Shown: piece after piece, positions 21,697 to 61,813 of the stretch | Position numbering within the stretch: position 1 is the first letter of the stretch | How the letters are laid out: the number at the start of each line of letters is the position of its first letter | Origin: Candidatus Sericytochromatia bacterium | GTDB taxonomy: Bacteria > Cyanobacteriota > Sericytochromatia > S15B-MN24 > UBA4093 | Direction: 5' to 3' | DNA: 64,000 nt | Assembly: GCA_036676455.1 (NCBI GenBank) | Contig: JAKFCW010000116.1 | Span: forward strand, 67,555 to 131,554 | Made by a program: the position numbers and the translations under genes | Notes under the pieces: generated by a model | What the model was told of the DNA's origin: nothing | The model's database searches: none | The model's input: only the letters and a program-made list of their open reading frames with translations

Positions 21697-22875
21697 TCAC
21701 CCGCTCCGGGAATTAGTTCTGACGGCCTGGTAAGCGGCATCCAATAACTCCATGGCTTGCTCTTGCGCCCCCGGCATGAGGTGCCCGTAGACATCCATGG
21801 TCGTGGAAACCTTGGAGTGCCCGAGACGCTTGCTAACGGTGAGGGGATCGATCTTCAGGTTGATGAGCTGCGAGGCATGAGTGTGCCGGAGTTCATGAAG
21901 CCGGAGCGGCGGAAGGCCCGCCTTCTTGAGCAATGGCTTCAAGCACTTGGTGAGGGCCATGGGGTTACACGGCGTACCGTCTGAGCTAGCGAGGACCAAG
22001 CCATGGTCTTGGTAGCCTGGACCGAACATGAGCCTTTGGCGGGCTTGCTCGGCCCGGTGCTGCTTTAGTGCCTCGACGGCCATGGCGGGAAGCGAGATTG
22101 TCCGGCGACTCCCGGCGGTCTTTGGCTCCTTGAAGCGAAACCCTCCGGCCTTCGTGACCTCCACCGCCTGATGAACGGTGAGATACCGGCGAGTAAGGTC
22201 TAGGTCTTGCCAGCGAAGCGCCGCAAGTTCGCCCCTGCGGAGCCCCGTCGTGACCGCCAAGACGATCGCGGTGTAGTGGGGGGACTCCTTGGCGACCTCC
22301 AGGAGCTTGTCCGCGTCCTCCTGACTCAGTGCCCGCATTTCACGTTCAGAGGCCCGTGGCGGCGTCACATCATCGGCCGGGTTCCGAGGTAGCAAGCGCC
22401 ACGTGACCGCTTGCTGTAGAGCGCAACGGAGGACCCTGTGATGATACAGGACCGTACTGGAGGAGAGCCCTCCCTTGCCATCCCGGCGACCGGTCTTTAA
22501 CGCCTCCGCATAGTATTTCTGAATGTGCGCTGGGCGGAGTTTCTCCATTCTCAATTGACCGAGTTGCGGTATGAGATGGGTGTGGACGATCTCAGCATAT
22601 CGCTCATAAGTCTTGGGTTGGACGTTCAGTGCCGCGCAATCCCGAAGCCATCGAGTCAAGAAATCACCAAGAGTCTCCCGGCCAGGCTCTACGAATTGCC
22701 CTGTATGAAGTTCATGGAGAAGCCGTGCAAGTTCGCGTTCGGCGTCTCGCTTTGTCCCATCAAACTTGACCGTTACTTGATTTCGGCCGCCATCCGCCTT
22801 CCGCTCCCCGTCATAAATGATATGCCATTTGTTTTTGTTGTTCTTACCTCTGCGCTGTCTGATATGTCCCTTCAT
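21697..22875 (-). CDS. int: Tyrosine-type site-specific integrase (phage integrase family)
   Basis: 392 aa. N-terminal SAM-like and core-binding domains. C-terminal catalytic domain with R…HELRHTHAS…Y (…LHELRHTHASQLI…VYGHL…). Adjacent to the tRNA. Confidence 0.9.
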   Translation of the reverse strand: MKGHIRQRRGKNNKNKWHIIYDGERKADGGRNQVTVKFDGTKRDAERELARLLHELHTGQFVEPGRETLGDFLTRWLRDCAALNVQPKTYERYAEIVHTHLIPQLGQLRMEKLRPAHIQKYYAEALKTGRRDGKGGLSSSTVLYHHRVLRCALQQAVTWRLLPRNPADDVTPPRASEREMRALSQEDADKLLEVAKESPHYTAIVLAVTTGLRRGELAALRWQDLDLTRRYLTVHQAVEVTKAGGFRFKEPKTAGSRRTISLPAMAVEALKQHRAEQARQRLMFGPGYQDHGLVLASSDGTPCNPMALTKCLKPLLKKAGLPPLRLHELRHTHASQLINLKIDPLTVSKRLGHSKVSTTMDVYGHLMPGAQEQAMELLDAAYQAVRTNSRSG

Positions 22876-24005
22876 GTCTCCTCCTTGCCGAGCGCCTCAT
22901 TTCCAGCCTTTGATTTTCGCCAATTCGATTGGGCCACCGTCTTGGCGCAACGTCGGCTGCAATACTTCGCCCGCCATGCACTGGATGCAAACGGCAACTG
23001 ACAACGCGCACAGCGGTAGACCCGGTTGTTTTCCGAAAAATCCTGGAGCGCCATGTAGGCGTAGTTTGATAGAAGCGAAGGGCCCCAAAGATACTGCTTT
23101 AACGTGCCATCGGGTTCTTCCTTAAGGACCGGCGACACGCTAGCAGCCCATCGATTCATGTGTTCAAGGCCTCTCCTACCGAGAATGCTTGCCTGTGCTA
23201 ACTCCGGGGAATCAGTAGGTTCTCCCGAGGTTTGTAAATGCATCCACTTGGTGAGGGCATCATAGGCAACATAGAAGGCTTCTACGGCCTCCAGGAAGGC
23301 GCTCAGGGGCTCCCGATACGAGCGAGCGATCGGATCCTCGGCGGTAGGGACTCTCGTAGGTCGAACATCTGCTGCGAAAAATGGATCCCACTTCTCTTCC
23401 AGGCTGTACAGGACGATCTCTCCGCTGTCCAGGTACTCCCAGTGAACGCCGTGGGGGCGACCGCCTAGCATGCCTTCCCCTAGCATCTCTTGGAAATCAA
23501 CAGGCACGGCAGTGTTGATCCGAACCTGACCGTGAAGAACCCGAAGGTTGTCTTTCCGCCTCGGGTAGACAAGGCTTTGCGTAACGCGGCCGAGGGAGTA
23601 TTCCGGCATCAACGCATGGAGAGGATACGTTGGATGAATCTTGTCCTCGCCCCCGATGCTGGAACTCGCGTCCATGACGACAGGGAAACAGACTTCAAGG
23701 GCCGACTGATGAAGTAGACCAAGAAGTCCGTTCTGGGAGCACCACTGGATGATCCGTGTTTCGGCCCCTTGTCTCTTCACATCCCGGAAAAGTTCAAGGA
23801 GTGATTGGTAGGACGGCGCAATCGACGCATTGGCTTTCTTGCTTAGCCCGTCTTCCCTTGCTCCCCGGCGGGACCAAGTCTTGTCATAGTCTTGCCACGG
23901 ATCATACACACTCAGTTCAGCGTCCGGGGCCGGCCGGATATATCCTCCCTCGATGCAATAGCGGTCAAACTTCCACCAAGTCCCTTGCCAAAGTCGATTA
24001 CTCAT
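22872..24005 (-). CDS. Island hypothetical protein with a C-terminal zinc-ribbon (CxxC…CxxxC)
   Basis: About 377 aa. C-terminus …YRCARCQLPFASSAWRAKYCSRRCAKT…. The stop overlaps the integrase start (ATGA). Lower-GC gene. An alternative TTG start lies at 24017. Confidence 0.55.
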   Translation of the reverse strand: MSNRLWQGTWWKFDRYCIEGGYIRPAPDAELSVYDPWQDYDKTWSRRGAREDGLSKKANASIAPSYQSLLELFRDVKRQGAETRIIQWCSQNGLLGLLHQSALEVCFPVVMDASSSIGGEDKIHPTYPLHALMPEYSLGRVTQSLVYPRRKDNLRVLHGQVRINTAVPVDFQEMLGEGMLGGRPHGVHWEYLDSGEIVLYSLEEKWDPFFAADVRPTRVPTAEDPIARSYREPLSAFLEAVEAFYVAYDALTKWMHLQTSGEPTDSPELAQASILGRRGLEHMNRWAASVSPVLKEEPDGTLKQYLWGPSLLSNYAYMALQDFSENNRVYRCARCQLPFASSAWRAKYCSRRCAKTVAQSNWRKSKAGNEALGKEET

Positions 24006-24020
24006 TCTCGTCCTCAACTA

Positions 24021-24054
24021 TGTAGATATCAATTAGCTAGTTGAACGATCTACA
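24021..24054. promoter_or_regulatory. Inverted repeat TGTAGAT-N20-ATCTACA in the divergent promoter region, a candidate operator for the adjacent XRE regulator
   Basis: 7-bp perfect inverted repeat read directly. It lies between the divergently transcribed island genes. Confidence 0.35.
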
Positions 24055-24114
24055 AAGCAACCTTACCATTACCGTTGTAAAGGAACAAGCCCTACTTAAA
24101 GGAGGCATGTGGAA

Positions 24115-24339
24115 ATGGCAGGGGAAACGTTGAAAGGCTGGAGGGCAAAGCGGGGATGGTCTCAATCCAAACTGGCAAAAGAATCCGGCCTGCACACGAC
24201 AACAATCAGCTTGCTGGAGTCCGGGCGCCTGAAGCCTTACCGAGTTCAGGCACAGAAACTTGCGGTAGCCTTTGGCGTCACGGAGGAGGAGGTGACGGCA
24301 CTGCTCGGGGGAGTTCAAGCCAACGGGAGGTCTTCATGA
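24115..24339 (+). CDS. XRE-family helix-turn-helix transcriptional regulator
   Basis: …GWSQSKLAKESGLHTTTISLLESG… HTH_3 signature. RBS AAAGGAGG upstream. A GTG at 24109 is an alternative start. Confidence 0.7.
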   Translation: MAGETLKGWRAKRGWSQSKLAKESGLHTTTISLLESGRLKPYRVQAQKLAVAFGVTEEEVTALLGGVQANGRSS

Positions 24340-24596
24340 ACAAGGCACCGGCGGTCCTGACCGTGGCGGAAGTCGCACAACGCCTCCGGCTTGGGCGAAA
24401 CAGTGTCTACGAGGCCATCCGTCGCGGAGTGATCCCTTCTCTCCGTGTCGGCCGACGAATTGTTATCCCCGCGATCGCCTTTGACCGTTTTCTCGAAGGC
24501 GCCGCCTGGGTGGACGTTTATAGGGCCACCGAGCTTGACCGAAAAGGAGGTCCCGCATCAGTCCCCCTTTATGGGCGCCGAACCCTTGGCGGCTGA
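24336..24596 (+). CDS. xis: Excisionase/AlpA-like helix-turn-helix DNA-binding protein
   Basis: 86 aa. …LTVAEVAQRLRLGRNSVYEAIRRGVIPSLRVGRRIVIP… (MerR-superfamily excisionase fold). The start overlaps the upstream stop (ATGA). Confidence 0.6.
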   Translation: MNKAPAVLTVAEVAQRLRLGRNSVYEAIRRGVIPSLRVGRRIVIPAIAFDRFLEGAAWVDVYRATELDRKGGPASVPLYGRRTLGG

Positions 24597-24842
24597 GCGC
24601 TTAACATTTACACCCCCTCCGCATTAACCCCGTAGATTACGTGAGCATGCCCGCCTAGCCCTGTGCCTGGCGGGCTGACTCCAACCGCTCTTCCTGGGCC
24701 TAGCAAGGCAGGGGAAGAGAAGTGCCCGGGTGTCGGCTACTGCACTTTACAAACCTATCTCGCGGCGGAGTGCCTCATCATCCTGCGGGTCCCGGCGATC
24801 GATCCCGGGCATACGCCCAACGTGCCAACGGAGACCTCGACC

Positions 24843-26207
24843 ATGGCCCTAGACGATTCGTCGCTCAGCAGATCGGCGATCGCCAAGATAGTGGATGATC
24901 TGGAAGTCCCCCCGGATCTCGAAGAAGGCTGCCGTCTACTTGCTGGCTTGCTTGCCAAGCGTCATGCCGGCAAAGTCACTTGGCAGAGTTATGTTGGTTT
25001 CCAGGGTCCGGGTCTCCCATGTTACGTTAATGCCTTCGTCCAAGGCCCAGCCGGAGTTGTGTTGTCCGCGCTCCGCTCAGAGGATTCGAGCAACGACCAC
25101 CAAGCACATCTCCAGAGTCAGTTTTTCGCCCTCCGGCATGCCGCGGTTGGCGAACGTGCGGTTTGCGGCAAGTTGCTGGACATGAACGGAGTCGTTGCAA
25201 TTCTCAAACCACCCTCTGAGGGCGATGTATACGACCTCCAGATCCTGGTAGGACCCCGGCAAGGGTCCCCATTACAAACAAGCGCCGATGGAGTATACCG
25301 CCTGAAAGTTCGCCTGGAGTCCGCTCGAACCAACGGCCGGACGCGATACCTCCGGGTGTCCGGTGTACATGCCTATCCGGATCTCGCCAACCTTCTCAGG
25401 TCCCGGATGAAAATCGACAACGGCAACCCGATCCGACTCCATCGAGTAATCGCCGCTTTGGCCGGCGCAAACCTACATGCTCGTGGCAACCATGGGCAGG
25501 AACAGCAAATCCATGTCCATCATCTGAACGGGGTCGGATTCGATTGTCGCTGGGAAAATTTGACGCCGCTACCAAGTACGCGACACCGCCAGCAGCACAG
25601 GGCCTGGGCGATCGAGGTCGGCCTTCCGCTCGAATCTCAACTTGGGCCGCATGCGCCCGACCTGGGCCCGGGGGGTGGATCGCTGTACTGGGGTGAGTGG
25701 AATGACACATGGTTTAGGGACACGACGCATGCGCGTCACATCGACCGCCAAAGGGTTACGACGAAGCCGGCTTCATGGGGGTTCTTTGGATCCGCGAGCC
25801 GAAAAGACCGGCGCCGCAGCCTTGATCGGCTGGCGATCGCCATACATGCCCATGGCGGGTGCATGGCGGTGGACGACTTGGTTCATGCACTTTTGCTTTC
25901 GCCATGCGATTCCAAGTCCGGAATCAGAAAGGTAATCATCCAGGCGGTCTCGGCCGAACTTGTCGAGAGCTTCTTTGAGGGGCGACGCCAAACCCTTTTC
26001 TTGCGGGCCACCCTAGTCACAAGGTTTCGGCGTAGAGTCATTCTGAACCGGATGCTACGGATCAGGCAGTTGCGCCTCGCAAACGACCTGGAAAACGTGT
26101 CTCGGTGGTTCCATGGGAAATACTCCCGCCGAAAGATAGCTCCCTACCTTAGACGGGTATGGGCTGGCTTCAGGCCAGCCCAGTCGGTTACTCGAAGTTA
26201 CGAATAG
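24843..26207 (+). CDS. Island-encoded HNH-endonuclease-domain protein (large, otherwise uncharacterised)
   Basis: About 454 aa from ATG 24843 (GGAGA RBS). HNH-like motif …IHVHHLNGVGFDCRWENLTPLPSTRHRQQH…. No other recognisable domains. The ORF track extends upstream to 24663. Confidence 0.55.
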   Translation: MALDDSSLSRSAIAKIVDDLEVPPDLEEGCRLLAGLLAKRHAGKVTWQSYVGFQGPGLPCYVNAFVQGPAGVVLSALRSEDSSNDHQAHLQSQFFALRHAAVGERAVCGKLLDMNGVVAILKPPSEGDVYDLQILVGPRQGSPLQTSADGVYRLKVRLESARTNGRTRYLRVSGVHAYPDLANLLRSRMKIDNGNPIRLHRVIAALAGANLHARGNHGQEQQIHVHHLNGVGFDCRWENLTPLPSTRHRQQHRAWAIEVGLPLESQLGPHAPDLGPGGGSLYWGEWNDTWFRDTTHARHIDRQRVTTKPASWGFFGSASRKDRRRSLDRLAIAIHAHGGCMAVDDLVHALLLSPCDSKSGIRKVIIQAVSAELVESFFEGRRQTLFLRATLVTRFRRRVILNRMLRIRQLRLANDLENVSRWFHGKYSRRKIAPYLRRVWAGFRPAQSVTRSYE

Positions 26208-26214
26208 TTACAGG

Positions 26215-26595
26215 CTACTCGTTGAATTCTCTGATCAAGTCCGCCACAGCGTCAGGCACCGAGACACTCCGGTTCTTTGGGTTCCGATAGAACTTATCAA
26301 GTCGCCCGGAGAACGCCTTGCCCAGAGCCAGGATGTTTTGCTGGGTATTCTCATCCGACAGATCGATATCCAGTCCACCTGCACCGGCGATGAGCGCGAC
26401 GAAGGCCCCCGCACACTGCGGGCGATCCGCGGCCTTCATCCTGACCCAGTCCTTGCCGTCAATCCGGGAGTTCTTGTCTAAATCAAACTGGCGGTTCATT
26501 TCATCGGCAAGAGGATTTGCCAAAGCGGGGCCAGAGAGGCCGCTAATGACGATCGCCGTCGCAACCACAAGGGACAGGTATGTTGGTCGAAGCAC
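26215..26595 (-). CDS. Secreted EF-hand calcium-binding protein
   Basis: 126 aa. Signal peptide (…VVATAIVISGLSGPALA). Canonical EF loop DLDKNSRIDGKD. GTG start with AGGAGGAAAG RBS. Confidence 0.55.
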   Translation of the reverse strand: MLRPTYLSLVVATAIVISGLSGPALANPLADEMNRQFDLDKNSRIDGKDWVRMKAADRPQCAGAFVALIAGAGGLDIDLSDENTQQNILALGKAFSGRLDKFYRNPKNRSVSVPDAVADLIREFNE

Positions 26596-26603
26596 CTTTC
26601 CTC

Positions 26604-27554
26604 CTAGTAATTAAAGTTTGCGGAAGCCGGGTTTGCGGTTTGCCAATACATGGACCTTTCATCAAAACCCGACTTGCCCCCTTGGCGGTGGTAAACGTAG
26701 TTCCCCGCCCAAGTCTCCCACCCGACCCCCGGGACGTAGCCTAGCCACTGGCCGTCATTGTCCGAGTCCTCCCAGGCGAACAGGATCAACCCCAAGCACT
26801 CCTCCCCGGTATCCGGGATGGTGATCGAGTAGCGGCCGTTTTCATCCACCCTGGCGGTCGCTATGAGCGACGGCCGGGCAGGAGGAACGTTGTTGATGAA
26901 GTCATTCACCCGGGTCTCGAAGTTGAGACAGCCACTGATCTTGTAGACCCCGATCATGGGGTGGGTCGTGCTGCCGGACACCTGCCCCTTGAAGGAAAAA
27001 GGAGGTCGCACTCCACCGGTGGAACCGGAGTCATCTCCGGAGTCTCCGCCTGAGTTCGAGGGTGGGACTATCGGTGTCGGCGTAGGAGTCGTACACGGCT
27101 CCGGAGTCGGCATCGAACTGGTTGCCTCCAGCGGAAGCAGGGGTACTCCATCTCCGCCGGCATTGAAGTTCAGGGCGCCGCTTGCTGCTCCTCCACGACC
27201 GTCTGAGACGATGGCCTGGACGGTGACCACGTAGGCGGCGCTCCGGGTAGCCGTCGCACTCCAGACGACCTCATTCCCGATCGTTGAAGAAAGGATCCCT
27301 TGATTCACGGACCAGCTAACCCGGAGCGGGTCACAGTCAGGATCACTGGCAAGGAGGCGCAGGGTAGCGGATCCGGAGGCCGTTTCGAACCGATGGGCCG
27401 AAAGGGAATGCAGGATGGGATCCCGGTTCGATAGGGGGGATTCAGATCCTTGGCCGGGGGGAGTAGTGGTTCCCCCATGGTTAACGATTGTCGTACCTAC
27501 GCAGCCCCCCAGGACCGCCACTGAGGCCGCTAGGACCCATGGAAGGCCTCGCAT
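26604..27554 (-). CDS. Lipoprotein with Ig-like/PKD-like domain and a Pro/Thr-rich linker
   Basis: Signal peptide with lipobox (…VAVLGGC), …LRVSWSVNQG… beta-sandwich-like segment, a PTPEPCTTPTPTPIVPP linker and a C-terminal domain of unknown function. Confidence 0.55.
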   Translation of the reverse strand: MRGLPWVLAASVAVLGGCVGTTIVNHGGTTTPPGQGSESPLSNRDPILHSLSAHRFETASGSATLRLLASDPDCDPLRVSWSVNQGILSSTIGNEVVWSATATRSAAYVVTVQAIVSDGRGGAASGALNFNAGGDGVPLLPLEATSSMPTPEPCTTPTPTPIVPPSNSGGDSGDDSGSTGGVRPPFSFKGQVSGSTTHPMIGVYKISGCLNFETRVNDFINNVPPARPSLIATARVDENGRYSITIPDTGEECLGLILFAWEDSDNDGQWLGYVPGVGWETWAGNYVYHRQGGKSGFDERSMYWQTANPASANFNY

Positions 27555-27563
27555 TTCGGACGC

Positions 27564-27989
27564 CTACTGTGCGCCGACTTGGGCGGTTCCATCGGCCTTT
27601 ACGACGAGGTTCTGGGATCCCTCTGCCGTCCCGCCCTTTTGGTCAGAGATCGAGACCTGGACGATGTAGGTCCCGGCGGTGGACGGAGGCGTCCAGTTGA
27701 CCACCCGGCCGGTATTCGTGCTTAAGGTCCCACCGGTGGCGGTCCATGTGTACTTCAGAATGTCGTTGTCCGGATCCACGGCGTCAATCGAGAAAGTAAT
27801 CGCTTGGCCGGGGGACGTGGTGTTGGTCGGGTTCGCCGTGAATGACATGATCGTCGGCTGGCGGTTGGTCCCGGCTGCCGAGCCACCGATTCCGGTAGCG
27901 TTGGTGATCTGGGTCTTGATGTCGCAGCCGGCGAGGGCCGGAAGAGCGATCATGGAGACGATGAGTGCGGCGGAGAGACGACGAGCCAT
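27564..27989 (-). CDS. Lipoprotein with PKD-like domain
   Basis: MARRLSAALIVSMIALPALAGC lipobox; …ITFSIDAVDPDNDILKYTWTATGG… resembles a PKD/Ig-like fold. The ORF track starts at 28037. Confidence 0.5.
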   Translation of the reverse strand: MARRLSAALIVSMIALPALAGCDIKTQITNATGIGGSAAGTNRQPTIMSFTANPTNTTSPGQAITFSIDAVDPDNDILKYTWTATGGTLSTNTGRVVNWTPPSTAGTYIVQVSISDQKGGTAEGSQNLVVKADGTAQVGAQ

Positions 27990-28143
27990 CGTGCGGATCC
28001 TTTCTGCATCCAAGCAATGATCCGGGACCGGTATCATCGAGTCCCGGAAGGGATAGCGAACCCTCGCTTGTTCCTCTGTGGTGAATTAAACCACCAATCC
28101 ATATGAACGAAACCTTAGCTACCATCCGGAGTGGAGGACGTTC

Positions 28144-28503
28144 ATGGACCTGCCCCCTTTCAGCAAAGCCATCAAAGCCCGGCGGAGCGAACTAAATTAC
28201 TCCTTGAAGGAGGCTTCCCGGCGAACGGGGATCCAGCCGAGCCGCCTCCATGACCTGGAGCAGGGCCGCAGTTCGACTACCGGGAAACCCACCGGGCCCT
28301 CCCGGGAGAACATCAAGAAGATCGCCAAGGGCTACCTCCTAGATGAAGCCTACCTACTCGACCTTTCCGGCCAGCCCAAACTCGACGCATCCACCTCCTC
28401 CGAGCGGCGGCTCCTAAGTCACTTCCGGGGACTGATTCCCGGTCACCAGGAGGCCATCCTTGCCCTGGTAGACCACCTTTACCGACTGGACCAGTCCCCA
28501 TAG
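28144..28503 (+). CDS. XRE-family helix-turn-helix transcriptional regulator
   Basis: …ARRSELNYSLKEASRRTGIQPSRLHDLEQG… HTH_3-like N-terminus plus a C-terminal extension. Confidence 0.6.
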   Translation: MDLPPFSKAIKARRSELNYSLKEASRRTGIQPSRLHDLEQGRSSTTGKPTGPSRENIKKIAKGYLLDEAYLLDLSGQPKLDASTSSERRLLSHFRGLIPGHQEAILALVDHLYRLDQSP

Positions 28504-28518
28504 ATCCAAAGCGCCGTC

Positions 28519-29433
28519 TCAGGCCTCCAGGGCCCTCCTGACGGTCTCCTCGCTGACCACCGCATAGCGCTGGGTGGTTTGGAGGTTCCGGTGCCCAAGG
28601 ACCTTCTGGACGACTTCCACCGGCTTCCCCTCGTTGATCAGCCGGGTCGCGTAGGTGTGCCGGAGCTGATGAATGGTCGCCTCGACCCCGGCCGCCCGGC
28701 AGTAGCGTTGCCAAGCTTTCTGGATGACCGAGTAGTGGATCGGAGCGCCGGCAGTTCCGTTCCGGCGTTTGCTCTCGTTCGGCCGGAACAAGAGTCCCCG
28801 GCCGGTGATCGTCTCGCCGTCGCCGGCAAGCCAACCTTGCGAGCGGAGGTAGCGCCGGAGCATGCTGTAGCTTTCAGTCTTGATGAGGTAGATGGTCCTC
28901 TCCCGGCCACCCTTTCCGATGATCGTGATCTCCTGGGCCGCCATCCGGATCTGCTCCAGGCGGACGGAAAGGATCTCCGAGACCCGAGCACCGGTATCCG
29001 CCAGGAGCTGAAAGATCAGGCGGTCCCGCTTGTCCTTGATGATCCGGAGAACTGCCTGGACCTCCCCGGATCGCATGGCTCGGGGTTGGGCCTCCGGGAC
29101 ATTGATCCGGGGAAGGCGCTCAACCGGATTGGCCGGCAGGAGGTCTCCCTGGACGCACCACCGGAGAAAGGCAGACAAGGCTGAGCGATGCCGGGCCATG
29201 GTTGCCGGCGATCGACCTTGTAAAGACCGAAGGTAGTCGCGGACCACTTGGACAGAGAGCGCCCCGATTTCGCCCTTGTAGAAGGTCATGAAGGTCTGGA
29301 GGTTGCTTTGGTAGCCCCGGAGGGTCTCCGGTCTGTTTCCCTCCACCCGGAGGTCGGCCAGGAAGTCGTTAAGTAGAGTCTCCAGGGAGGCTCGCCGGCA
29401 ACCCGGCAGACCCGTATGCAGGATCCTTGGCAT
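28519..29433 (-). CDS. Tyrosine recombinase XerC/XerD-like (second island recombinase)
   Basis: N-terminal SAM-like domain (…LETLLNDFLADLRVEGNRPETLRGYQSNL…). Catalytic residues …R…HQLRHTYATRLI…LGHRNLQTTQRYA…. The ORF track begins at 29553; a probable internal ATG start lies at 29433. Confidence 0.8.
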   Translation of the reverse strand: MPRILHTGLPGCRRASLETLLNDFLADLRVEGNRPETLRGYQSNLQTFMTFYKGEIGALSVQVVRDYLRSLQGRSPATMARHRSALSAFLRWCVQGDLLPANPVERLPRINVPEAQPRAMRSGEVQAVLRIIKDKRDRLIFQLLADTGARVSEILSVRLEQIRMAAQEITIIGKGGRERTIYLIKTESYSMLRRYLRSQGWLAGDGETITGRGLLFRPNESKRRNGTAGAPIHYSVIQKAWQRYCRAAGVEATIHQLRHTYATRLINEGKPVEVVQKVLGHRNLQTTQRYAVVSEETVRRALEA

Positions 29434-29651
29434 GTGGTCCTCCTCGTTGTGCGTGGTAACGATAAGAAGGGGATCCGGGTTGTGGGACCGGAAGGCTTGG
29501 TGCCATCTCGCGGGTCCTCCGGAGTGTGCGCGGCAATGTTCATTACCGCGCACATTGCCCAGATTGTGTGGCCTACCTCATGGCATATTGGGGACGAAGG
29601 CCTGGAGATGGCTTCACCCACACGCGCCCATGCAAGGCAAGGAGACCCCCT

Positions 29652-29816
29652 ATGAGCCCCTCGTACCAAGAATTGCTTGCGCAGAACGTCGCCCTTAAGC
29701 AGGAACTTCAGCGTGCCACCGAGATCATCAACCGGCTGAGAGCCGAAAATGACGAACTCCGGAGGCGCCAGGGCGGCGATGGACTGGACGGTTTGCTTGG
29801 CCGGCTAGGGCGTTAA
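29652..29816 (+). CDS. Small coiled-coil protein
   Basis: 54 aa (MSPSYQELLAQNVALKQELQRATEIINRLRAENDELRRRQ…) with a strong RBS, AAGGAGA. Heptad-like pattern. Confidence 0.4.
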   Translation: MSPSYQELLAQNVALKQELQRATEIINRLRAENDELRRRQGGDGLDGLLGRLGR

Positions 29817-30020
29817 TACCTTCAAGGCCTCTGCGAGCCGTCAGTTCTCGCGGAGGCCTTGTGGTCCTTGCTATCGCCCTTGCGCTGGTTGGCCTCGAAC
29901 CTTGCCATCCGTCGCTCGATCTCCTGGAGCAATTCATCGAGTTCTACGGAGATTGCTTCCAAGTCGATGGGAACTTCAACCTCCTGGAGACTCTCCTCCG
30001 ACTCCTTCAGGGGACCTCCG

Positions 30021-30278
30021 CTATGACTGCCGGATCTGATCCCCAGGCTCCGTCTTGGGACCGAATACGGCGAACCCCCTGCCCATGGCCACCCCTGCAA
30101 CAAAGGACCGCTCAGCGATCGTCCGACTCCGCTCTAGGTGAAGCTGATGAAGTTGCTCGATCTCCTTCTGGTAGTCCGGCGACAGCACCTCTCGGAGGCA
30201 GTCCAGGCGGCCCGCAATGTCTACGATGAACCGATCGTTCACTTCGGCAAGCATGTCTTCGATGACCTCAAGACACAT
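30021..30278 (-). CDS. Small hypothetical protein; it may be fused by a frameshift with ORF 29822..30103
   Basis: 85-aa ORF. Partly overlaps a second minus-strand ORF in another frame (29822..30103, acidic coiled-coil-like). Weak evidence. Confidence 0.3.
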   Translation of the reverse strand: MCLEVIEDMLAEVNDRFIVDIAGRLDCLREVLSPDYQKEIEQLHQLHLERSRTIAERSFVAGVAMGRGFAVFGPKTEPGDQIRQS

Positions 30279-30552
30279 ATTGATCCTCCCTCAATAGTTG
30301 CAAGGCAGACGGGACACCCGGCCGGAGGCCATCCGGCGTGTGAGAGACGGGACATGGCAAACCACCCCCTTGGTTATCCAATATCGACGGTATTGCCACT
30401 AGGTAGAAAACATTCAAGCGTGCCGTTACAGGCACTCGACAGGGTCGTACTTTTGAGATGACTCGTTAGGCAGCATTGGGAACCATCGTTTTGATGGCAG
30501 AAGAGGCGGGTAAGTAATCAAGGGTTATCAGACCTTATGCAAGGACAATGCA

Positions 30553-31752
30553 ATGAATCGACGAAATGCGACGGCTGTCTCCCTGATCGCTCTTACCTTA
30601 GGTATTGGCATCATTGCCGGGTGCGCCGACTTACAAGGTGTATTGACCGGCTCGACGCAGGATCAATCCCAAGGCTCTTTTGGAAAGGTACTTTTCCAAA
30701 TTGCTTTGCCCAGCAGCGAACGACAGATTGCGGGCGTGCTGGATGTAGTCGATCGAATCGAATTGTCTCTGTCAGGTTCAGCCCTAAGCACTCCGTTATC
30801 TTCGACGATTAGCAAGTCCGAGATTTCTAGTGGTGGAGCTTCGGCAACAATCGAACGAGTTCCCCCCGGACAGCTGTTACTTTCGGCGTCCGTACTGGAC
30901 GGTATAGGGAACGTACTAGCAACCGGTTCGGCACCAGTAACCGTCGTAGCAGGGCGTCAAGCCACAGCCAACATGACGTTAACAATTCCAACCACAGGAT
31001 CGGTCGGTTCAACGATCACGTTGGAGGAAGGCTCGCCAGTTCCAGGGGCTAGTCCAAGTCCTTCATCATTTAGCTTTAGCCCCACGGCACAGCTCACTGG
31101 CAAGATCACGTATGACGGTTCCCCCCTTGAGTTTGCGGACGATAACTACGATCCGGTAATGAAGATCAAGGAGCCAGGCTTGACCCTATTGGGTCATTCC
31201 TCAGCAGTGTTTGAGAATCAGTACTTTCAGTATGTTGGCTTAACCGAGAGTAAGCCATATCAGGTTGTTTGGGACTATCAAGGACAGCCCCCGGCTAGTG
31301 CAGCGGCAATTAATACTATTAGGCTATTTGTCTCGGACCCTATTACCGCTTCCGCCGTCGCAGTAGACCCCATGGTCGCCATGGACATCATGTGGGAAAC
31401 GAAGGCTTCACCGAACTATGGAGCATACATCCATCCAACGACCGATAACCCTGTCAGCTTCAGCTTTAGCAAAGTCCCTCATTTAGACGCCGAGTATCAG
31501 GTAGATGTCTTTGACGTGAACGGTGCTAGGCAGTGGTCGTCAGCTTGGCTTACAAGTTCTTCCGTGTCTTGGAATGGGCGCAAAGGAACGGAAACGAACA
31601 CCCCTACTGGAGCAGAGATTTCGCCTGGTTCCTATTCCTACTCGATCAAGTTCCGTAAGGTGGGTGGGACATTTGGTGGAGCAAATTATTACGGGGAGTC
31701 TTTCAGAATTCCGCTCCAGAAGTCGCTCAGTGGGCCTGTAATAAATGATTGA
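30553..31752 (+). CDS. Lipoprotein of unknown function in a low-GC patch
   Basis: 399 aa. Signal peptide with lipobox (…LGIGIIAGC). Ser/Thr/Gly-rich and beta-rich. The gene and its upstream region are markedly AT-richer than the flanks. Confidence 0.6.
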   Translation: MNRRNATAVSLIALTLGIGIIAGCADLQGVLTGSTQDQSQGSFGKVLFQIALPSSERQIAGVLDVVDRIELSLSGSALSTPLSSTISKSEISSGGASATIERVPPGQLLLSASVLDGIGNVLATGSAPVTVVAGRQATANMTLTIPTTGSVGSTITLEEGSPVPGASPSPSSFSFSPTAQLTGKITYDGSPLEFADDNYDPVMKIKEPGLTLLGHSSAVFENQYFQYVGLTESKPYQVVWDYQGQPPASAAAINTIRLFVSDPITASAVAVDPMVAMDIMWETKASPNYGAYIHPTTDNPVSFSFSKVPHLDAEYQVDVFDVNGARQWSSAWLTSSSVSWNGRKGTETNTPTGAEISPGSYSYSIKFRKVGGTFGGANYYGESFRIPLQKSLSGPVIND

Positions 31753-31901
31753 GTGGCGTATTACTAGCAAACCGTTTGCAAACGAACTCTTTGGCACGAG
31801 GGAGCAACTAGCGGGATTATTTGGGACTCAGGTTCCGCCAAATCGAGATTAGACGGGACTCACGAAACCGTCTTGGGAATAGGGGGGATAGGGGCCATCA
31901 G

Positions 31902-31964
31902 ACTCGAAATGCGTTGCCCCGTAAGGGGTTGGGGGTTCGAGTCCCCTGCCCTCCGCTCCCACCA
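31902..31964 (+). repeat. attR: 63-bp direct repeat (partial tRNA-Ser 3' half, no 5' half)
   Basis: Identical to 21551-21613. The 28 nt upstream do not form a tRNA 5' half. Confidence 0.85.
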
Positions 31965-31970
31965 GTAATC

Positions 31971-32010
31971 GCTTAGAGCCCCCGGCCGAATCGGCCGGGG
32001 GCTCTAAGCC
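31971..32010 (+). terminator. Perfect 18-bp hairpin GCTTAGAGCCCCCGGCCG aat CGGCCGGGGGCTCTAAGC downstream of attR
   Basis: Read directly. Likely the original tRNA-Ser terminator. Confidence 0.55.
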
Positions 32011-56623: not shown

Positions 56624-57796
56624 TTAGTTGAGCTTGGGAGCCGCTCCGAGCATGCCGCTCGGGGCGGCTTTCTTGCTGGCAGTCGGGGTCGCGGCAGGGG
56701 CAGCGCCGGTGAGCTTGTCTCCGAGCTTGGTGAACATCGTCGTGACCTGCTTGGCAATGCCGCGGGCCGCCTCGGAAATCACGCCACCGAAGGCCTTCGC
56801 GCCCTCGACGGGATTGGCGAGGTACGAGAGCATCTGGCGGTCGGTATTGCCCGCTTCGAGGTCGCGCTTGCGGGTGGCAATCAATCCGAGCTCGGTGGCG
56901 ACGCCGAAGGCGGCCGCCGCAGGCACCAGGGCCGCCCCACCGGTGATGACGGAGGCCCCGAAGAGGACCGCGCCGCTCGCGATGGAGCCGGCGACCAGGC
57001 CCTTGGAGGTGTTGGAGCTGCGGGGGTCGCGCCAGATGTCGATGGCGATCCGGATCGAATTGGCGAGCGCGGCCAGGTTCAGGACGGGCATGAGCTTGCC
57101 CAGCTTGCGGACCAAGACGCCGAGCGGGCTGGCGGAGACCGTGGCGGCCAGGCGGCCGATTCCTGCGGTCATGCCCTTGAAGGCGGGGAACTTGCCGAGC
57201 CACTTGCCGATGCCGGTGGCCGCGCCACTTAGCTGCTGAGCGAGCACCACGCCGTTCTGGGTATGCTGCGCGAGCTTGAGGCCGGACTTCACGCGATCGC
57301 CTCGGGTGGTCAGGGGCGAAACCACCTTCTTGACTTCCTTCGAGACCTGTTCCACCGTCTCGGAGACCTTCGCCTCACCGGTGGCGATCATGACGGCATC
57401 CGCCACCACGGAGAGCTTCGAAAGGCTGGGAGAGTTCTTGAGCACGGCCTTGGCCGTCATCGCGGCGGCGAAGTGATCTCCCTTGGCAGCAGCGACGGCT
57501 CCCGAGACCACGGTGGCGCCCTTGGCGATTCCCTCGGCGACCTCCGGGCTGGCCGACATGGTCTTGGCGGCGACCTTTGCGGCCTCCACGGCGGCGGCGG
57601 CGGCATCCCCGCTGGCGACGTTCGACGTGAGCGTCGTGCCCCCCACCAGCTTGCCAACGAAGACGTCCGTCTTGTTCGCGACGCTCGACTTGAGCGCTTC
57701 CTCGGTCTGATCGCCCTCCTGAGCCTCCGGCGCCGCGGGGCGCGAAGTGCGGACGAACATGTCGTGGATTCTCGATTGGCCGTTGATGGTGCTCAT
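56624..57796 (-). CDS. Ala/Gly/Val/Lys-rich low-complexity protein of unknown function
   Basis: 390 aa, no signal peptide. High GC3 in this frame and a GGAG RBS support it being coding. The overlapping plus-strand ORF 56628..57239 is its antisense shadow. Confidence 0.5.
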   Translation of the reverse strand: MSTINGQSRIHDMFVRTSRPAAPEAQEGDQTEEALKSSVANKTDVFVGKLVGGTTLTSNVASGDAAAAAVEAAKVAAKTMSASPEVAEGIAKGATVVSGAVAAAKGDHFAAAMTAKAVLKNSPSLSKLSVVADAVMIATGEAKVSETVEQVSKEVKKVVSPLTTRGDRVKSGLKLAQHTQNGVVLAQQLSGAATGIGKWLGKFPAFKGMTAGIGRLAATVSASPLGVLVRKLGKLMPVLNLAALANSIRIAIDIWRDPRSSNTSKGLVAGSIASGAVLFGASVITGGAALVPAAAAFGVATELGLIATRKRDLEAGNTDRQMLSYLANPVEGAKAFGGVISEAARGIAKQVTTMFTKLGDKLTGAAPAATPTASKKAAPSGMLGAAPKLN

Positions 57797-58690: not shown

Positions 58691-59335
58691 ATGCTGAAGC
58701 GACTCGCCGCCGCCCTCGCGGCGCTCTGGATCACCACCAGCTCTCCCGCTCAGGCCTTCGGTGGCACCGGCCTTCCGAGCGTCTTGCCAGGACTGGACAA
58801 CGCCCCGCCCTTCACCGCGGACGTCGTGATCACCTCGCCGGCGATGCCCACCCCCACCACGTTCCGGATCGCCTACATGCCCCAGCGCGTGCGCCTGGAA
58901 TCGAAGGGAGAGGCGGGCATGACCGCCATCATCCGCATGGACGAAGGGTCGGCGTACATGTACCAGGGAGATTCCACCTGGCTGCGCCTCAGCCTCTCCT
59001 CGCTCGGCGCCATGGGGCTCAACCCCGGCGCCCGCCATTCGCTGAAGAAGCTGGCCAACCAGACGGTCGACGGCCGCAACTGCGAGGTCTACCAGAGCAC
59101 CTCGGAAGACGGCAGCGTCTCCACCAACTACGTCGCGAGCGGCGTGCCGTTCAAGTCGATCGTCCGGACGCCCGCCAGTGGCGACACCGTGGTCCGCTAC
59201 CTCAATGTCTCGCGCGGGGGCGTCAACGCCGCACTCTTCACCCTGCCTGCCGACGCCGAGGTGATGGACATGGCAAACTTGTTGAACGGCCTCAAAGGCC
59301 GAAAGGGCGCCGACTTCGGCCTCGAGGAGCCCTAG
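58691..59335 (+). CDS. Secreted hypothetical protein (LolA/DUF4412-like beta-rich fold is possible)
   Basis: RBS GGAGGAA. Signal peptide MLKRLAAALAALWITTSSPAQA. Confidence 0.5.
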   Translation: MLKRLAAALAALWITTSSPAQAFGGTGLPSVLPGLDNAPPFTADVVITSPAMPTPTTFRIAYMPQRVRLESKGEAGMTAIIRMDEGSAYMYQGDSTWLRLSLSSLGAMGLNPGARHSLKKLANQTVDGRNCEVYQSTSEDGSVSTNYVASGVPFKSIVRTPASGDTVVRYLNVSRGGVNAALFTLPADAEVMDMANLLNGLKGRKGADFGLEEP

Positions 59336-59424
59336 CTCGCATCGAGCGAGTCGTTAAGTTTCGTCTTGCCATGGGAACGAGGGAGCAAGGGAGCGTTTGA
59401 CTCCCCACTCGAAGGGAGGTTGGC

Positions 59425-60588
59425 ATGTCAACAGGACCGCTGGGCCTGACCTGGGTCACCCAAACGCCAAACGTTCGGCCTCGCGGCGATGCCTCTTCTG
59501 CCACCCCTCCCGAGCCTCCGACGCAGACGCCTCCGGCCGGGTCGACGCCCCCCGCCGATCAGTCCTCGGTAGCGGGCGGAAAAGGCCTGCTCCTCGAATG
59601 GGCGGGAAGCGCTCCCGCGCCCGGATCGGCCGGTACGCCAAGCGGTCTGGGCATCGAATGGGCCTCTGCCAGCAAGCCATCGGCCCCACCTCCGGCCGGT
59701 GGACCGCTGGGAGGTGGTTCGCCCGCGAGCAAGCCCTCCACCGGCAGCGCGCTCGGCATCGAGTGGCGCAGCGGAGCCAGCACCTCCACCCCGGCCGCCC
59801 CGCCACCGGCGGGCGGATCCCCCTCGACCAACCAGGGACTCGGCCTCGAATGGCGCAGCGGCTCGACCTCTTCCGCTCCCGCAGGCGGCAAGCCTGCCGG
59901 AAGCACTTCCTCGCCCCCTCCTTCCGGCAACTCGCTCGGCCTGACCTGGGCCGGCGGCTCCAGCAGCGTCGCCCCGGCCGTGCCGCTCGACCCGGAAGCC
60001 CAGCGGCTCGCACAGCTGAAGACGCAGCTTACCGGCCCTCTACCCAAGCTTCCTGGGCCTGCCCAGGGCACCAGCTGGAAGCAGAACGACCTGATCAACC
60101 GGTCCAACCTCATCAAGGGCATCCGCGCCGACGCAGCCCTGCAGAGCGCGTTCGCCGACTGGGGCAAGCTGCCCGCCGACACCAAACTCGCGGCGGGTAA
60201 CCGCATCGCGGCGATGGAAGGAGCGATCTACGGCTTCGCGCCCGCCGCCATCCAGATCGATGCCTTCCTGAAGAAGCCGTCCTACGGGTACTACCACCCG
60301 ACCGAGGACAAGGTCCATGTCTCGCCCGACACCCTGACGAACCTGCGCGAATTCGTGAACACCGTGACCCACGAGCAGGCACATGCCTATCAGTGGGAAA
60401 AGGGCGTCGACGCGAAGAAGGGGAGGATGGACCCGGCCGATCCCCTCTACGACACGGCGATCAGCTGGTATGGGAACTTCTTCGATTACGCTCAGCCCAC
60501 CAACGGGTATGAAGCCTACCGCACGCAACCCATCGAAGCCCACGCCTTCGCCACCGGCGACAGCGTCTCGGCCGGAGTCTTCGCATGA
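59425..60588 (+). CDS. Repeat protein with five or six Pro/Ser-rich G(L/I)EW repeats and a C-terminal HExxH zinc-metallopeptidase-like domain
   Basis: N-terminal ~200 aa: tandem units of about 30 aa centred on LLLEWAG, LGIEWAS, LGIEWRS, LGLEWRS and LGLTWAG. The C-terminal globular domain contains …VTHEQAHAYQWEKG… (HExxH), with a possible downstream third ligand …EAHAF…. Confidence 0.55.
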   Translation: MSTGPLGLTWVTQTPNVRPRGDASSATPPEPPTQTPPAGSTPPADQSSVAGGKGLLLEWAGSAPAPGSAGTPSGLGIEWASASKPSAPPPAGGPLGGGSPASKPSTGSALGIEWRSGASTSTPAAPPPAGGSPSTNQGLGLEWRSGSTSSAPAGGKPAGSTSSPPPSGNSLGLTWAGGSSSVAPAVPLDPEAQRLAQLKTQLTGPLPKLPGPAQGTSWKQNDLINRSNLIKGIRADAALQSAFADWGKLPADTKLAAGNRIAAMEGAIYGFAPAAIQIDAFLKKPSYGYYHPTEDKVHVSPDTLTNLREFVNTVTHEQAHAYQWEKGVDAKKGRMDPADPLYDTAISWYGNFFDYAQPTNGYEAYRTQPIEAHAFATGDSVSAGVFA

Positions 60589-60908
60589 AAACCTTGACCT
60601 TCTACCTCTGGAAACTGGATGCCTCGACGGACTTCCTACCTCAGCTCGCGGGCCAGGTGACCGTCGAGGGCGATCGCGCCTCGGCCACCCCTTCCTCCGA
60701 CGCCCGAATCCGGGATCTGGTGGCGGCACTCGGCAAGAAGCCGCTGCCCCTACGCTCGGAGACCATGGAGGGGCAGGGAGCCGGCATGAAGCTCAAGCTA
60801 CGCGAGGTCGAGCTGCGGCCCGGCGAAGCGGACTGGGGCTATGCCCTCAGCGAGGCCATCGGCCGAGAGGGTGGCTACTCGGTCACCTTCACCCCCGAGC
60901 CACAATAG
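60585..60908 (+). CDS. Small protein translationally coupled to the HExxH protein (candidate immunity/partner protein)
   Basis: 107 aa. The ATG overlaps the upstream stop (ATGA). No recognisable family. Confidence 0.4.
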   Translation: MKTLTFYLWKLDASTDFLPQLAGQVTVEGDRASATPSSDARIRDLVAALGKKPLPLRSETMEGQGAGMKLKLREVELRPGEADWGYALSEAIGREGGYSVTFTPEPQ

Positions 60909-60910
60909 CG

Positions 60911-60942
60911 AAAAAGGCCCGCCTACTGGCGGGCCTTCGTCT
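60911..60942. terminator. Bidirectional terminator hairpin (AAAAAGGCCCGCC tact GGCGGGCCTT) between convergent genes
   Basis: Perfect 8-bp GC stem flanked by an A-run and a T-rich tail. It overlaps the last codons of the methyltransferase gene. Confidence 0.65.
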
Positions 60943-61813
60943 TGGGTTTGGCCTTGGCTTTCGCCTGAGGCTTCTGGAAGAGCATGACGTACTCGTGCTT
61001 GAAGACGTAGTAGCCGTCCTTGAGGGCGCGGTACTTCCAGAGGTTGGCGTTCTTGCCCTTGCCCTTCTCGTTCCCGTTGATGTCCTTCACGACGATGCTC
61101 TTGAGCAGATAGCCGGCGTTCATGCACTCCTGCATGCACTGGAAGCCCAGGGGCACCCACTCACCCTTGGCGTACTTGTCCCCGATGACCAGGGCCATGA
61201 AGCGGCCCGGGGCGAGCAGGTCGAAGCTGGCACGGGCCACCTCACCGAAGCGCTCCACGAACTCGTCGTCGCTGTCGACGGTGGAGAGGTCGTCGGGGTT
61301 CTCGCCGTTGGAGAAGCGGATGATGTCCGAGTAAGGGGGGTGCAGGAAGACCAGGTCCGCCGCGTCCTTCTCAAGCGACTCGAAGGCCTCGCGGACCTTG
61401 ACGTGGGTGACGGAGTCGGCGGAGCTGCCGTTCACCACGATCGTGCGCACGTCGTGGGGGTTCTCGGTGGCCTCGATGCGGGCCTGCGAGCGCTCCGCGA
61501 TGGCCGGCAGCAGCTCGATGCCGACGCCGTTGCGCCCCAGCCGGCGGCACTCGATGAGGCTGGTGCCCATCCCCAGGAACATGTCCAGGACCGTGTCGCC
61601 CTGCTTGGAGTAGCGCAACATGATCTGCTCGGCGACCTGGGGGATGAAGTTGCCGTGGTAATCCCCGACGTGGGTCCCGGTGTTCTTGCGGGACGGAAAC
61701 TGCCAGAGGCTGTCCGTCAGGATGTCGGGATAGTCCTTCCAGTTCGAAAGGTCGATATCCGAGTACGAGGGGGACTTGGGCTGGCGCGGGGACATGGATT
61801 TTGGCCTCAACAT
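60923..61813 (-). CDS. DNA methyltransferase, beta-class N6-adenine/N4-cytosine (DPPY family, PF01555-like)
   Basis: 296 aa. Catalytic motif …VFLHPPYSD… and SAM-binding motif …VLDMFLGMGTSLIEC…. No adjacent restriction-endonuclease gene is evident. Confidence 0.8.
   Translation of the reverse strand: MLRPKSMSPRQPKSPSYSDIDLSNWKDYPDILTDSLWQFPSRKNTGTHVGDYHGNFIPQVAEQIMLRYSKQGDTVLDMFLGMGTSLIECRRLGRNGVGIELLPAIAERSQARIEATENPHDVRTIVVNGSSADSVTHVKVREAFESLEKDAADLVFLHPPYSDIIRFSNGENPDDLSTVDSDDEFVERFGEVARASFDLLAPGRFMALVIGDKYAKGEWVPLGFQCMQECMNAGYLLKSIVVKDINGNEKGKGKNANLWKYRALKDGYYVFKHEYVMLFQKPQAKAKAKPKTKARQ

Follow-up and report, generated by a model that had tools for sequence, protein, structure and literature searches.

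A predicted zincin metallopeptidase with tryptophan-motif repeats and an overlapping small partner gene in Candidatus Sericytochromatia: a possible effector/immunity pair

Introduction

The zincin VgrG2b is an effector of the Pseudomonas aeruginosa H2 type VI secretion system (H2-T6SS) that carries HExxH and a Glu ligand and is neutralised by the product of a small downstream open reading frame (ORF), PA0261 (PMC6899460). Small Wss1/SprT-like zincins, grouped as Tox-MPTase1-5 and PVC-metallopeptidase, are likewise found at the C-terminal ends of toxins that T6SS or other routes deliver (Zhang et al. 2012, PMC3482391); RHS repeats typically precede the Tox-MPTase families, and the PVC-metallopeptidase signature is HExxHxxQ-E (PMC3482391). 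Here we analyse a gene pair in a 64,000-nucleotide stretch of DNA from a Candidatus Sericytochromatia bacterium, hereafter ‘the window’. The first gene of the pair encodes a protein of 387 amino acids (aa), made up of a disordered repeat region and a C-terminal domain with a predicted zincin fold, and the second encodes a 107-aa partner. The domain belongs to a large family for which we could define a motif signature, and the pair is tentatively read as a peptidase effector with an inhibitor- or immunity-type partner.

By analogy, the layout of the pair is most like that of VgrG2b/PA0261. VgrG2b and, as predicted, the 387-aa protein are both compact zincins with HExxH and a Glu about 45-50 residues on, near the C-terminus. 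A small ORF lies immediately 3′ in both cases, its neutralising role being a feature of PA0261, and one relative of the window domain (P0103) is likewise fused to VgrG. The differences are that no sequence or fold similarity is detectable (VgrG2b is absent from the Foldseek top 50 of the PDB and from a PDB profile search), that PA0261 is periplasmic whereas the 107-aa partner has no signal peptide, and that the 387-aa protein is found without VgrG or T6SS context. The PVC-metallopeptidase signature has the same pattern as HEQAHAYQ…E371 of the 387-aa protein, which is a resemblance only. No Pfam match to Tox-MPTase or eCIS_core/DUF4157 was obtained for the 387-aa protein even at E <= 1; unlike Tox-MPTase toxins, it has no RHS repeats and its locus is not polymorphic.

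The best-scoring curated models are DUF6782, a putative metallopeptidase family, and SprT-like, which align over the strand and the HExxH helix in nearly all close homologues. The 387-aa protein differs from SprT-like proteins in having no DNA-binding module, and SprT/Spartan has the motif HExxHxxxxxH, in which a third His takes the place of a distant Glu. The ImmA/IrrE systems (COG2856) are two-gene units that pair a zincin with a small partner protein, which is a helix-turn-helix (HTH) repressor and the substrate of the protease, whereas the 107-aa partner has neither an HTH nor any family match. Foldseek matches of the window domain to PprI/IrrE (8sln, 3dti) are weak, with E 0.3-2.7 and template-modelling (TM) scores of about 0.27-0.33. 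Judged by its sequence, the 387-aa protein is a member of none of VgrG2b, Tox-MPTase, eCIS_core, DUF6782 or SprT-like.

Results

The gene for the 387-aa protein, originally predicted as an ORF from the DNA letters, is real, with 18 homologues at E values from 7e-242 to 9e-57. Three alignments are used below: A1, the protein with these homologues (19 sequences); A6, 50 diverse members of the wider family; and A3, the partner family. The HExxH that the original prediction had picked out, HEQAH at aa 316-320, is invariant in 19 of 19 A1 sequences, as is IEAHAF (aa 370-375), and H316, E317 and H320 are also invariant in A6. AlphaFold2 (AF2), run on residues 185-387 with the family alignment, returned a model with a predicted local distance difference test score (pLDDT) of 91.9 and a predicted TM score (pTM) of 0.90. 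In this model an N-terminal helical part is followed by a three-stranded sheet, the long HEQAH helix (residues 123-147 of the domain model, which hold H316, E317 and H320) and C-terminal helices, the last of them starting at E371. The modelled layout is that of a zincin, which is the fold that the HExxH had suggested. A downstream segment, EAHAF, had been proposed as the source of a third zinc ligand, and the segment was well chosen. The ligand itself is most likely E371 and not H373, because other members of the family have E, Q or D in place of H373 while E371 is invariant family-wide; with E371 as third ligand, the site would be of the gluzincin type.

Curated models match the domain at sub-threshold scores. 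Among the 19 close sequences, weak Pfam matches are to SprT-like in 19, to DUF6782 in 18 and to MPTase-PolyVal in 14, and none reaches threshold. For the window protein, DUF6782 (PF20573) scores 13.8 bits over the full protein and 15.6 bits over the domain alone, below its gathering threshold of 27, and SprT-like (PF10263) scores 16.1 and 17.7 bits, below its threshold of 25.6. DUF6782 matches 21 of the 50 diverse family members, with a best E of 5e-7. Searching the zincin model against the PDB and BFVD with Foldseek gave nothing below E = 0.01 (best E at least 0.014, TM about 0.3-0.4). The best of these weak PDB matches are the M. tuberculosis transcriptional regulator 6cyy, PprI/IrrE, deuterolysin, abylysin, selecase and MATCAP; zincins predominate, alongside unrelated folds of low probability, and every match of high probability is a zincin. 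The best BFVD (viral) matches are SprT-like proteins. No relative was found among PDB sequences with either the single sequence or a 50-member profile, Spartan appearing at E = 0.18; matches to ribosomal protein L19 and a DNA ligase III fragment were taken as chance. PADLOC and PHROGs gave no matches for the pair apart from a weak ArdC-type ‘anti-restriction’ zincin (E = 0.0045), and tblastn searches of plasmid and phage collections gave none. Taking model and motifs together, the C-terminal domain is a predicted minimal SprT/Wss1-like zincin of a family without a solved structure.

This family is large. An exhaustive HMMER profile search of 1.84 billion cluster representatives found 836 proteins at E <= 1e-3, of which 142 are at E <= 1e-10; the count of about 840 representatives given below is at 50% clustering. 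HExxH followed by QPxE 30-90 residues on is present in 137 of 164 sequences (the 18 close homologues and 146 representatives), and in nearly all of these 137 the domain ends about 15-30 residues or less from the C-terminus. The invariant columns in A6, whose 50 diverse members are short proteins, are H, E, H and Q of HExxHxxQ and Y, Q, P and E of YxxQPxE. About 150 relatives were scanned for architecture with Pfam and 50 with NCBIfam, and no model reached threshold for the 387-aa protein or for nearly all scanned relatives; most relatives have no recognisable partner domain. The fusions that do occur include those of T6SS type, namely to PAAR (P0081, P0086), to PAAR-like DUF4280 (P0166) and to a complete VgrG (P0103, 1095 aa). 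Cell-wall modules, namely LysM (P0075), Amidase_2 and Peptidase_M23, occur in one protein each, and 11 of 130 relatives have signal-peptide or lipoprotein-like N-termini. There are also 25 giant forms of 900-1700 aa. Those inspected belong to Rhodobacterales (Albimonas WP_339949695.1; Paracoccaceae MEX0348145.1) and are all-helical, with no domain that could be recognised.

Two side observations concern the wider family. The Rhodobacterales giants from Albimonas and Paracoccaceae (L007:8001-12534, L012:5001-8999) are Ala/Glu/Lys-rich helical proteins of 1100-1700 aa with no Pfam domain and the zincin at the end. Separately, 18 of 130 full-length relatives (P0033-P0178) start with Met-Gly; six of these fit MGxxx[S/T/A/C/G/N], and seven come from one clade with the consensus MGLRxLLGLPxK. 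A role of these ‘MG’ N-termini as a host N-myristoylation signal was rejected, as the enrichment is weak and seven come from that single clade.

The start codon of the partner overlaps the stop codon of the 387-aa gene as ATGA, and the two genes form one operon. The 107-aa ORF, whose overlap the original prediction had noted, has both coding signal and conservation: its G+C content at third codon positions (0.82) is similar to that of other window genes, 14 homologues were found at 57-92% identity, and A3 has 36 invariant columns. The partner family is narrow, with 20 clusters in the profile search. The protein is mildly acidic (isoelectric point, pI, 5.1), and its AF2 model (pLDDT 88.7) has an alpha/beta fold in the order beta-beta-beta-alpha-beta-beta-alpha-beta. 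No significant neighbour of this model is present in the Foldseek PDB top 50, where the best matches are generic ferredoxin-like or PII folds at E of at least 0.087. Terminators had been predicted on both flanks of the pair. Only the downstream one is supported: this hairpin folds at -24.7 / -24.5 kcal/mol (z = -3.7 on the + strand and -5.5 on the - strand), no shuffled sequence folds equally well, and it is likely a bidirectional terminator. The upstream hairpin (59335-59351) has no folding advantage over shuffled sequence (z = -0.38), and therefore the pair does not have terminators on both sides.

Gene neighbourhoods were compared at 12 loci. As a rule, a close downstream ORF follows the zincin gene in the loci examined, across very different architectures. 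The two genes overlap by 1 nucleotide (nt) in L002 and L004, and a partner-family ORF follows after a gap of 3 nt in L009 and 6 nt in L011. The VgrG fusion (L013) is followed without a gap by an ORF of more than 125 aa with a hydrophobic N-terminus, the PAAR fusion (L014) by a signal-peptide-like ORF of 141 aa with a 4-nt overlap, and the DUF4280 fusion (L015), after 12 nt, by an ORF running into the contig end. The Rhodobacterales giants of L012 and L007 are followed, after 42 and 13 nt, by ORFs of 160 and 174 aa with an acidic tail. These two acidic-tail proteins are homologues, with 34% identity and E = 2e-13. Neither hhalign nor BLAST found significant similarity between the 107-aa partner and the downstream ORFs of the Rhodobacterales (L007, L012) and T6SS-fused (L014) relatives, and the parallel is therefore positional only.

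Partner homologues also follow two zincins with unrelated N-termini, P0040 (964 aa; 33% identity, E = 4e-19, 3-nt gap) and P0183 (302 aa; 38% identity, E 5e-16, 6-nt gap), and the zincins that the partner family follows share only about 30% identity. Because it follows P0040 and P0183, the partner tracks the catalytic domain and not the N-terminal region, which is the central observation on this protein.

The N-terminal region (aa 1-185) is 75% Pro/Ser/Gly/Ala/Thr. The six repeats that had been described around a G(L/I)(E/T)W-type core are confirmed as six copies of L-x-[LVI]-[ET]-W, beginning at aa 6, 55, 75, 110, 139 and 171 with spacings of 49, 20, 35, 29 and 32 aa, and all six Trp residues of the region fall inside them. 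Across the 18 homologues the consensus is sharper, G-L-[GD]-[LVI]-E-W-x-[SGT]-G-S. Five to seven copies are kept in 16 of the 18 (the fragment P0010 has one), and P0017 and P0018 have none; the spacers between motifs differ in length and sequence among homologues. A periodicity had also been claimed for the DNA, where find_repeats places copies 60, 105, 87 and 96 nt apart (start to start) with identities of 62-81%. The first copy agrees with the last at 94% over 18 nt, and Tandem Repeats Finder calls no array. The DNA-level copies are old and diverged. Table 1 gives the coordinates of all features of the pair.

Table 1. Positions in the window of the gene pair and its features
Feature	Position	Strand	Basis
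Shine-Dalgarno sequence GGGAGG	59414..59419	+	Sequence reading; 5 nt 5′ of the ATG of the 387-aa gene
Gene for 387-aa protein (disordered repeat region + zincin domain)	59425..60588	+	ORF; 18 homologues; alignment A1
N-terminal repeat region, aa 1-185	59425..59979	+	Motif census across the family; DNA repeat families D1-D3
Six L-x-[LVI]-[ET]-W copies	59440-59454, 59587-59601, 59647-59661, 59752-59766, 59839-59853, 59935-59949		
C-terminal zincin-like metallopeptidase domain (predicted), aa 186-387	59980..60585	+	AF2; weak zincin matches in Pfam and Foldseek; 836 HMMER relatives
HEQAH, aa 316-320, putative zinc-binding/catalytic motif, within family-wide HExxHxxQ	60370..60384	+	Invariant in A1 and A6
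YRTQPIEAHAF, aa 366-375, within family-wide YxxQPxE	60520..60549	+	Y, Q, P and E invariant in A6
E371 codon, probable third zinc ligand	60535-60537	+	A6 conservation; start of predicted helix 185-202 (domain-model numbering)
107-aa partner gene	60585..60908	+	Homologues; alignment A3; AF2; adjoins zincin gene in L001, L002, L004, L009, L011
GC-rich hairpin between convergent partner gene (+) and methyltransferase gene (-)	60915..60936	.	Shuffle folding test

Discussion

There are several possible explanations for the conserved pairing of these genes. The one that we favour, at somewhat short of an even chance, is that the pair consists of a peptidase effector and an inhibitor/immunity-type partner. 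The 387-aa protein would be a zinc metallopeptidase in which H316 and H320 bind zinc, E317 acts as the catalytic base and E371 provides the third ligand, as its motifs and modelled fold suggest. We infer that the 107-aa protein, made from the same mRNA by translational coupling, would bind the peptidase domain and, in the manner of immunity or inhibitor proteins, keep it silent inside the producer. The peptidase, whatever its target, would then act as an effector outside the producer’s cytoplasm, and the six GLGxEW motifs in the disordered chain could serve as multivalent short linear motifs that dock to a receptor or an export component. Fusions within the family to PAAR, DUF4280, VgrG, LysM, amidase, M23 or signal peptides point to action outside the producer’s cytoplasm. 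A close downstream ORF kept across such differing architectures is characteristic of effector/immunity pairs. In polymorphic toxin systems the immunity gene has a characteristic position, and here an ORF lies directly 3′ of the zincin gene in the window and in L001, L002, L004, L009 and L011, with analogous ORFs in L013-L015.

A number of observations weigh against this reading. The original prediction had likened the pair to polymorphic-toxin and effector pairs. That likeness stands for distant relatives, where PAAR, DUF4280 and VgrG fusions are followed by small ORFs. It does not extend to the locus itself. Orthologous and syntenic from genome to genome, the locus has none of the variability of such systems, its product lacks a trafficking domain at the N-terminus (PAAR, VgrG, Rhs, LXG or other), and the pattern-limited scan given below paired that N-terminus with no alternative C-terminal domain. 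The absence of a classical signal peptide had been noted at the outset, and neither protein of the pair has a signal-peptide-like N-terminus, which for the 387-aa protein speaks against export. T6SS-type architectures (PAAR, DUF4280 and VgrG), the kind of marker that had been proposed as a search target in homologues, occur in only four of the about 150 scanned relatives and not in the 387-aa protein. Export-related contexts are thus real but confined to a minority of scanned relatives, and illustrate a possible use of the domain, not the role of every member. A pattern-limited scan of JGI metagenomes found the repeat module with no other C-terminal domain, only the same family being returned.

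The partner adds to these points. Its fold matches no known inhibitor or immunity protein in the Foldseek search of the PDB, and the downstream ORFs of T6SS-fused relatives align to it with an hhalign probability of 0.5%. The zincin paralogues P0011, P0013, P0014 and P0017 have no 107-aa partner alongside; behind P0011 (L003) and P0013 (L018) comes a protein of about 225 aa, and behind P0014 (L019) a further ORF the size of a zincin. L004 has a single partner gene, flanked by two zincin genes. The partnerless paralogues weigh against a strict one-toxin, one-immunity rule. Finally, no secretion-system gene is present among the ten large ORFs scanned in the 64-kb window, which include glycine cleavage, MacB/FtsX, histidine kinases, PPDK, MMPL and a Kelch protein. 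The T6SS components Hcp, VgrG and PAAR are absent both as linked genes among the scanned ORFs and as fusions in the 387-aa protein, and the rest of the window is ordinary chromosome.

The genomic setting is also unlike that expected of a weapon. Close relatives in the species-representative collection are limited to three loci in two Candidatus Sericytochromatia metagenome-assembled genomes, and L001 and L002, two of these loci, have the same gene order as the window: DsbA-like, Ala-rich 390-aa (-), MerR (-), a signal-peptide DUF4412-like gene (+), the repeat-zincin (+), the partner (+), an N6_N4 DNA methyltransferase (-), menE-like and menC-like. Pairwise identities among the three genomes (window, L001 and L002) are 76-82% for the zincin domain, 72-77% for the small partner and 60-68% for the repeat region; for the neighbours they are 66-75% (DsbA-like), 70-78% (menE-like) and 87-89% (methyltransferase). 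Given the synteny and the housekeeping-like identities, the pair is a vertically inherited core-genome locus under ordinary purifying selection, not a hypervariable island. Such divergence and synteny are unlike those of a fast-evolving weapon locus. The toxin/immunity reading is thus plausible by family context and partly contradicted by the evolutionary behaviour of this locus.

Such behaviour would suit an intracellular, lineage-specific regulated protease with cytoplasmic substrates of its own, in which the GLGxEW repeats recruit substrates or a scaffold and the 107-aa protein acts as a regulator or adaptor (a reversible inhibitor or specificity factor). We consider this, the main rival of the effector reading, unlikely on balance, with a chance that is still considerable. 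Besides the syntenic, vertically inherited position and the housekeeping rate of divergence, it is favoured by the lack of a signal peptide in either protein, by the absence of secretion genes among the scanned window ORFs, by the finding of the repeat module only with the zincin domain (in the pattern-limited scan) and by the existence of paralogues without a partner. In addition, the nearest recognisable zincins, SprT/Wss1 and ImmA/IrrE, work inside cells. It is harder to reconcile with a domain family that is fused to PAAR, DUF4280, VgrG, LysM, amidase and M23 or equipped with signal peptides, and with a tightly coupled downstream ORF across varied architectures, the effector/immunity hallmark.

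If the effector reading is followed further, the GLGxEW disordered region could be a hitherto unrecognised delivery or targeting module that takes a zincin toxin out of the cell or onto its target without known trafficking domains, with the 107-aa protein as founder of a cytoplasmic zincin-immunity family; this extended proposal is doubtful and carries a small chance. Slightly less probable still is a role in export for the 107-aa protein, which as a dedicated chaperone or adaptor would bind the N-terminal region or the domain of an effector and hand it to an export machine, like class I chaperones of type III secretion systems (T3SS) or T6SS adaptors. The size (107 aa), pI of 5.1 and alpha/beta fold of the partner, the Ser/Thr/Pro-rich disordered N-terminus of its neighbour and the position of one partner gene between two zincin genes in L004 would all fit. 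Against a chaperone stand the partner homologues behind P0040 and P0183, whose unrelated N-termini imply that the partner tracks the catalytic domain, the lack of any T3SS chaperone (class I) or T6SS adaptor in the Foldseek PDB top 50 and the absence of an export machine among the scanned window ORFs.

Two further explanations fare worse. The 387-aa protein could be a self-processing multi-core precursor, with the GLGxEW units as core peptides that the fused peptidase excises to give small Trp-containing signalling or natural-product peptides. The units are indeed conserved between spacers that vary in length and sequence, and the repeat module is always attached to a peptidase domain. We regard this as very improbable, since no modifying enzymes or peptide transporters are adjacent, the peptidase occurs without repeats in P0017, P0018 and the majority of the 836 relatives, and the zincin family offers no precedent. 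Membership of the pair in a defence or stress island, alongside the MerR and DNA methyltransferase genes, is the least probable of all: the MerR / DUF4412-like / zincin / partner / methyltransferase block is kept in L001 and L002 and the methyltransferase matches type II methyltransferase models, but zincin and partner have no PADLOC match, the methyltransferase is convergent with a strong terminator between it and the pair, and the pair occurs in L004, L009 and L011 without MerR or methyltransferase-block neighbours.

The zincin domain is carried as cargo by a small number of T6SS spike proteins and is on that account a candidate antibacterial effector domain. The large collection of relatives has allowed a sequence-level definition (HExxHxxQ…YxxQPxE, about 840 representatives) of a zincin family that has neither a Pfam or NCBIfam model nor a PDB relative, and the 107-aa proteins form a new, narrow family of candidate cognate inhibitors. 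In Sericytochromatia, uncultured non-photosynthetic relatives of cyanobacteria, the zincin domain is joined to an unusual multivalent Trp-motif tail and occupies a stable place in the core genome. This would mean either the domestication of a weapon domain to serve an internal role or the use of a novel export route; both would be informative and neither revolutionary. What is new here is an unannotated zincin family, a partner family and a Trp-motif repeat tail, and nothing overturns current understanding.

Neighbouring genes and other observations

The neighbours named by the original prediction, an Ala-rich protein, a MerR regulator and an N6_N4 methyltransferase without an adjacent nuclease, are all as described, and no evidence was found for a functional link of the pair to any of them. 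The Ala-rich 390-aa protein (56624-57796, -) is syntenic in L001 and L002 (66-74% identity) and has in its C-terminal part some 45 hydrophobic, Gly/Ala-rich residues that may form a membrane hairpin. No relative of this protein was found in Pfam, NCBIfam or the PDB, and its candidacy as a gene-fusion link to the N-terminus of P0040 was rejected, there being no similarity. Directly 5′ of the pair lies a gene (58691-59335, +) whose 214-aa product carries a clear signal peptide, MLKRLAAALAALWITTSSPAQA, and matches DUF4412 below threshold; this gene is also syntenic in L001 and L002 (75-79% identity). The methyltransferase gene (60923-61813, -) is the most conserved of the block; the Lys/Ala-rich C-terminal tail of its product, KAKAKPKTK, is encoded by a 12-nt tandem repeat (60932-60966).

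On related Sericytochromatia-type contigs (L004:9779-17371, L003:9213-13201, L018:7459-8142), zincin genes head a larger cluster of ORFans that has no counterpart in the window. Proteins of about 225 aa with a PRARGTxxLD motif each precede proteins of about 405-445 aa, which have conserved Cys/His motifs (DCAEATLEATLA…GLHGVAVTG…) and a common C-terminal GGGRVASxATKR. This ORFan pair, which has no Pfam matches, is duplicated in L004 and then followed by NHL-repeat proteins. An Amidohydro_1 gene, absent from the window, lies directly 5′ of the zincin gene in three loci that otherwise differ (L004:6443-7840, L011:3529-4908, L018:4418-5815), with 48% identity between L004 and L011. Elsewhere in the window, the G+C fraction falls from about 0.66 to 0.53-0.61 over positions 22001-32000, with a minimum of 0.533 at 30001-32000, and this segment may be horizontally acquired.

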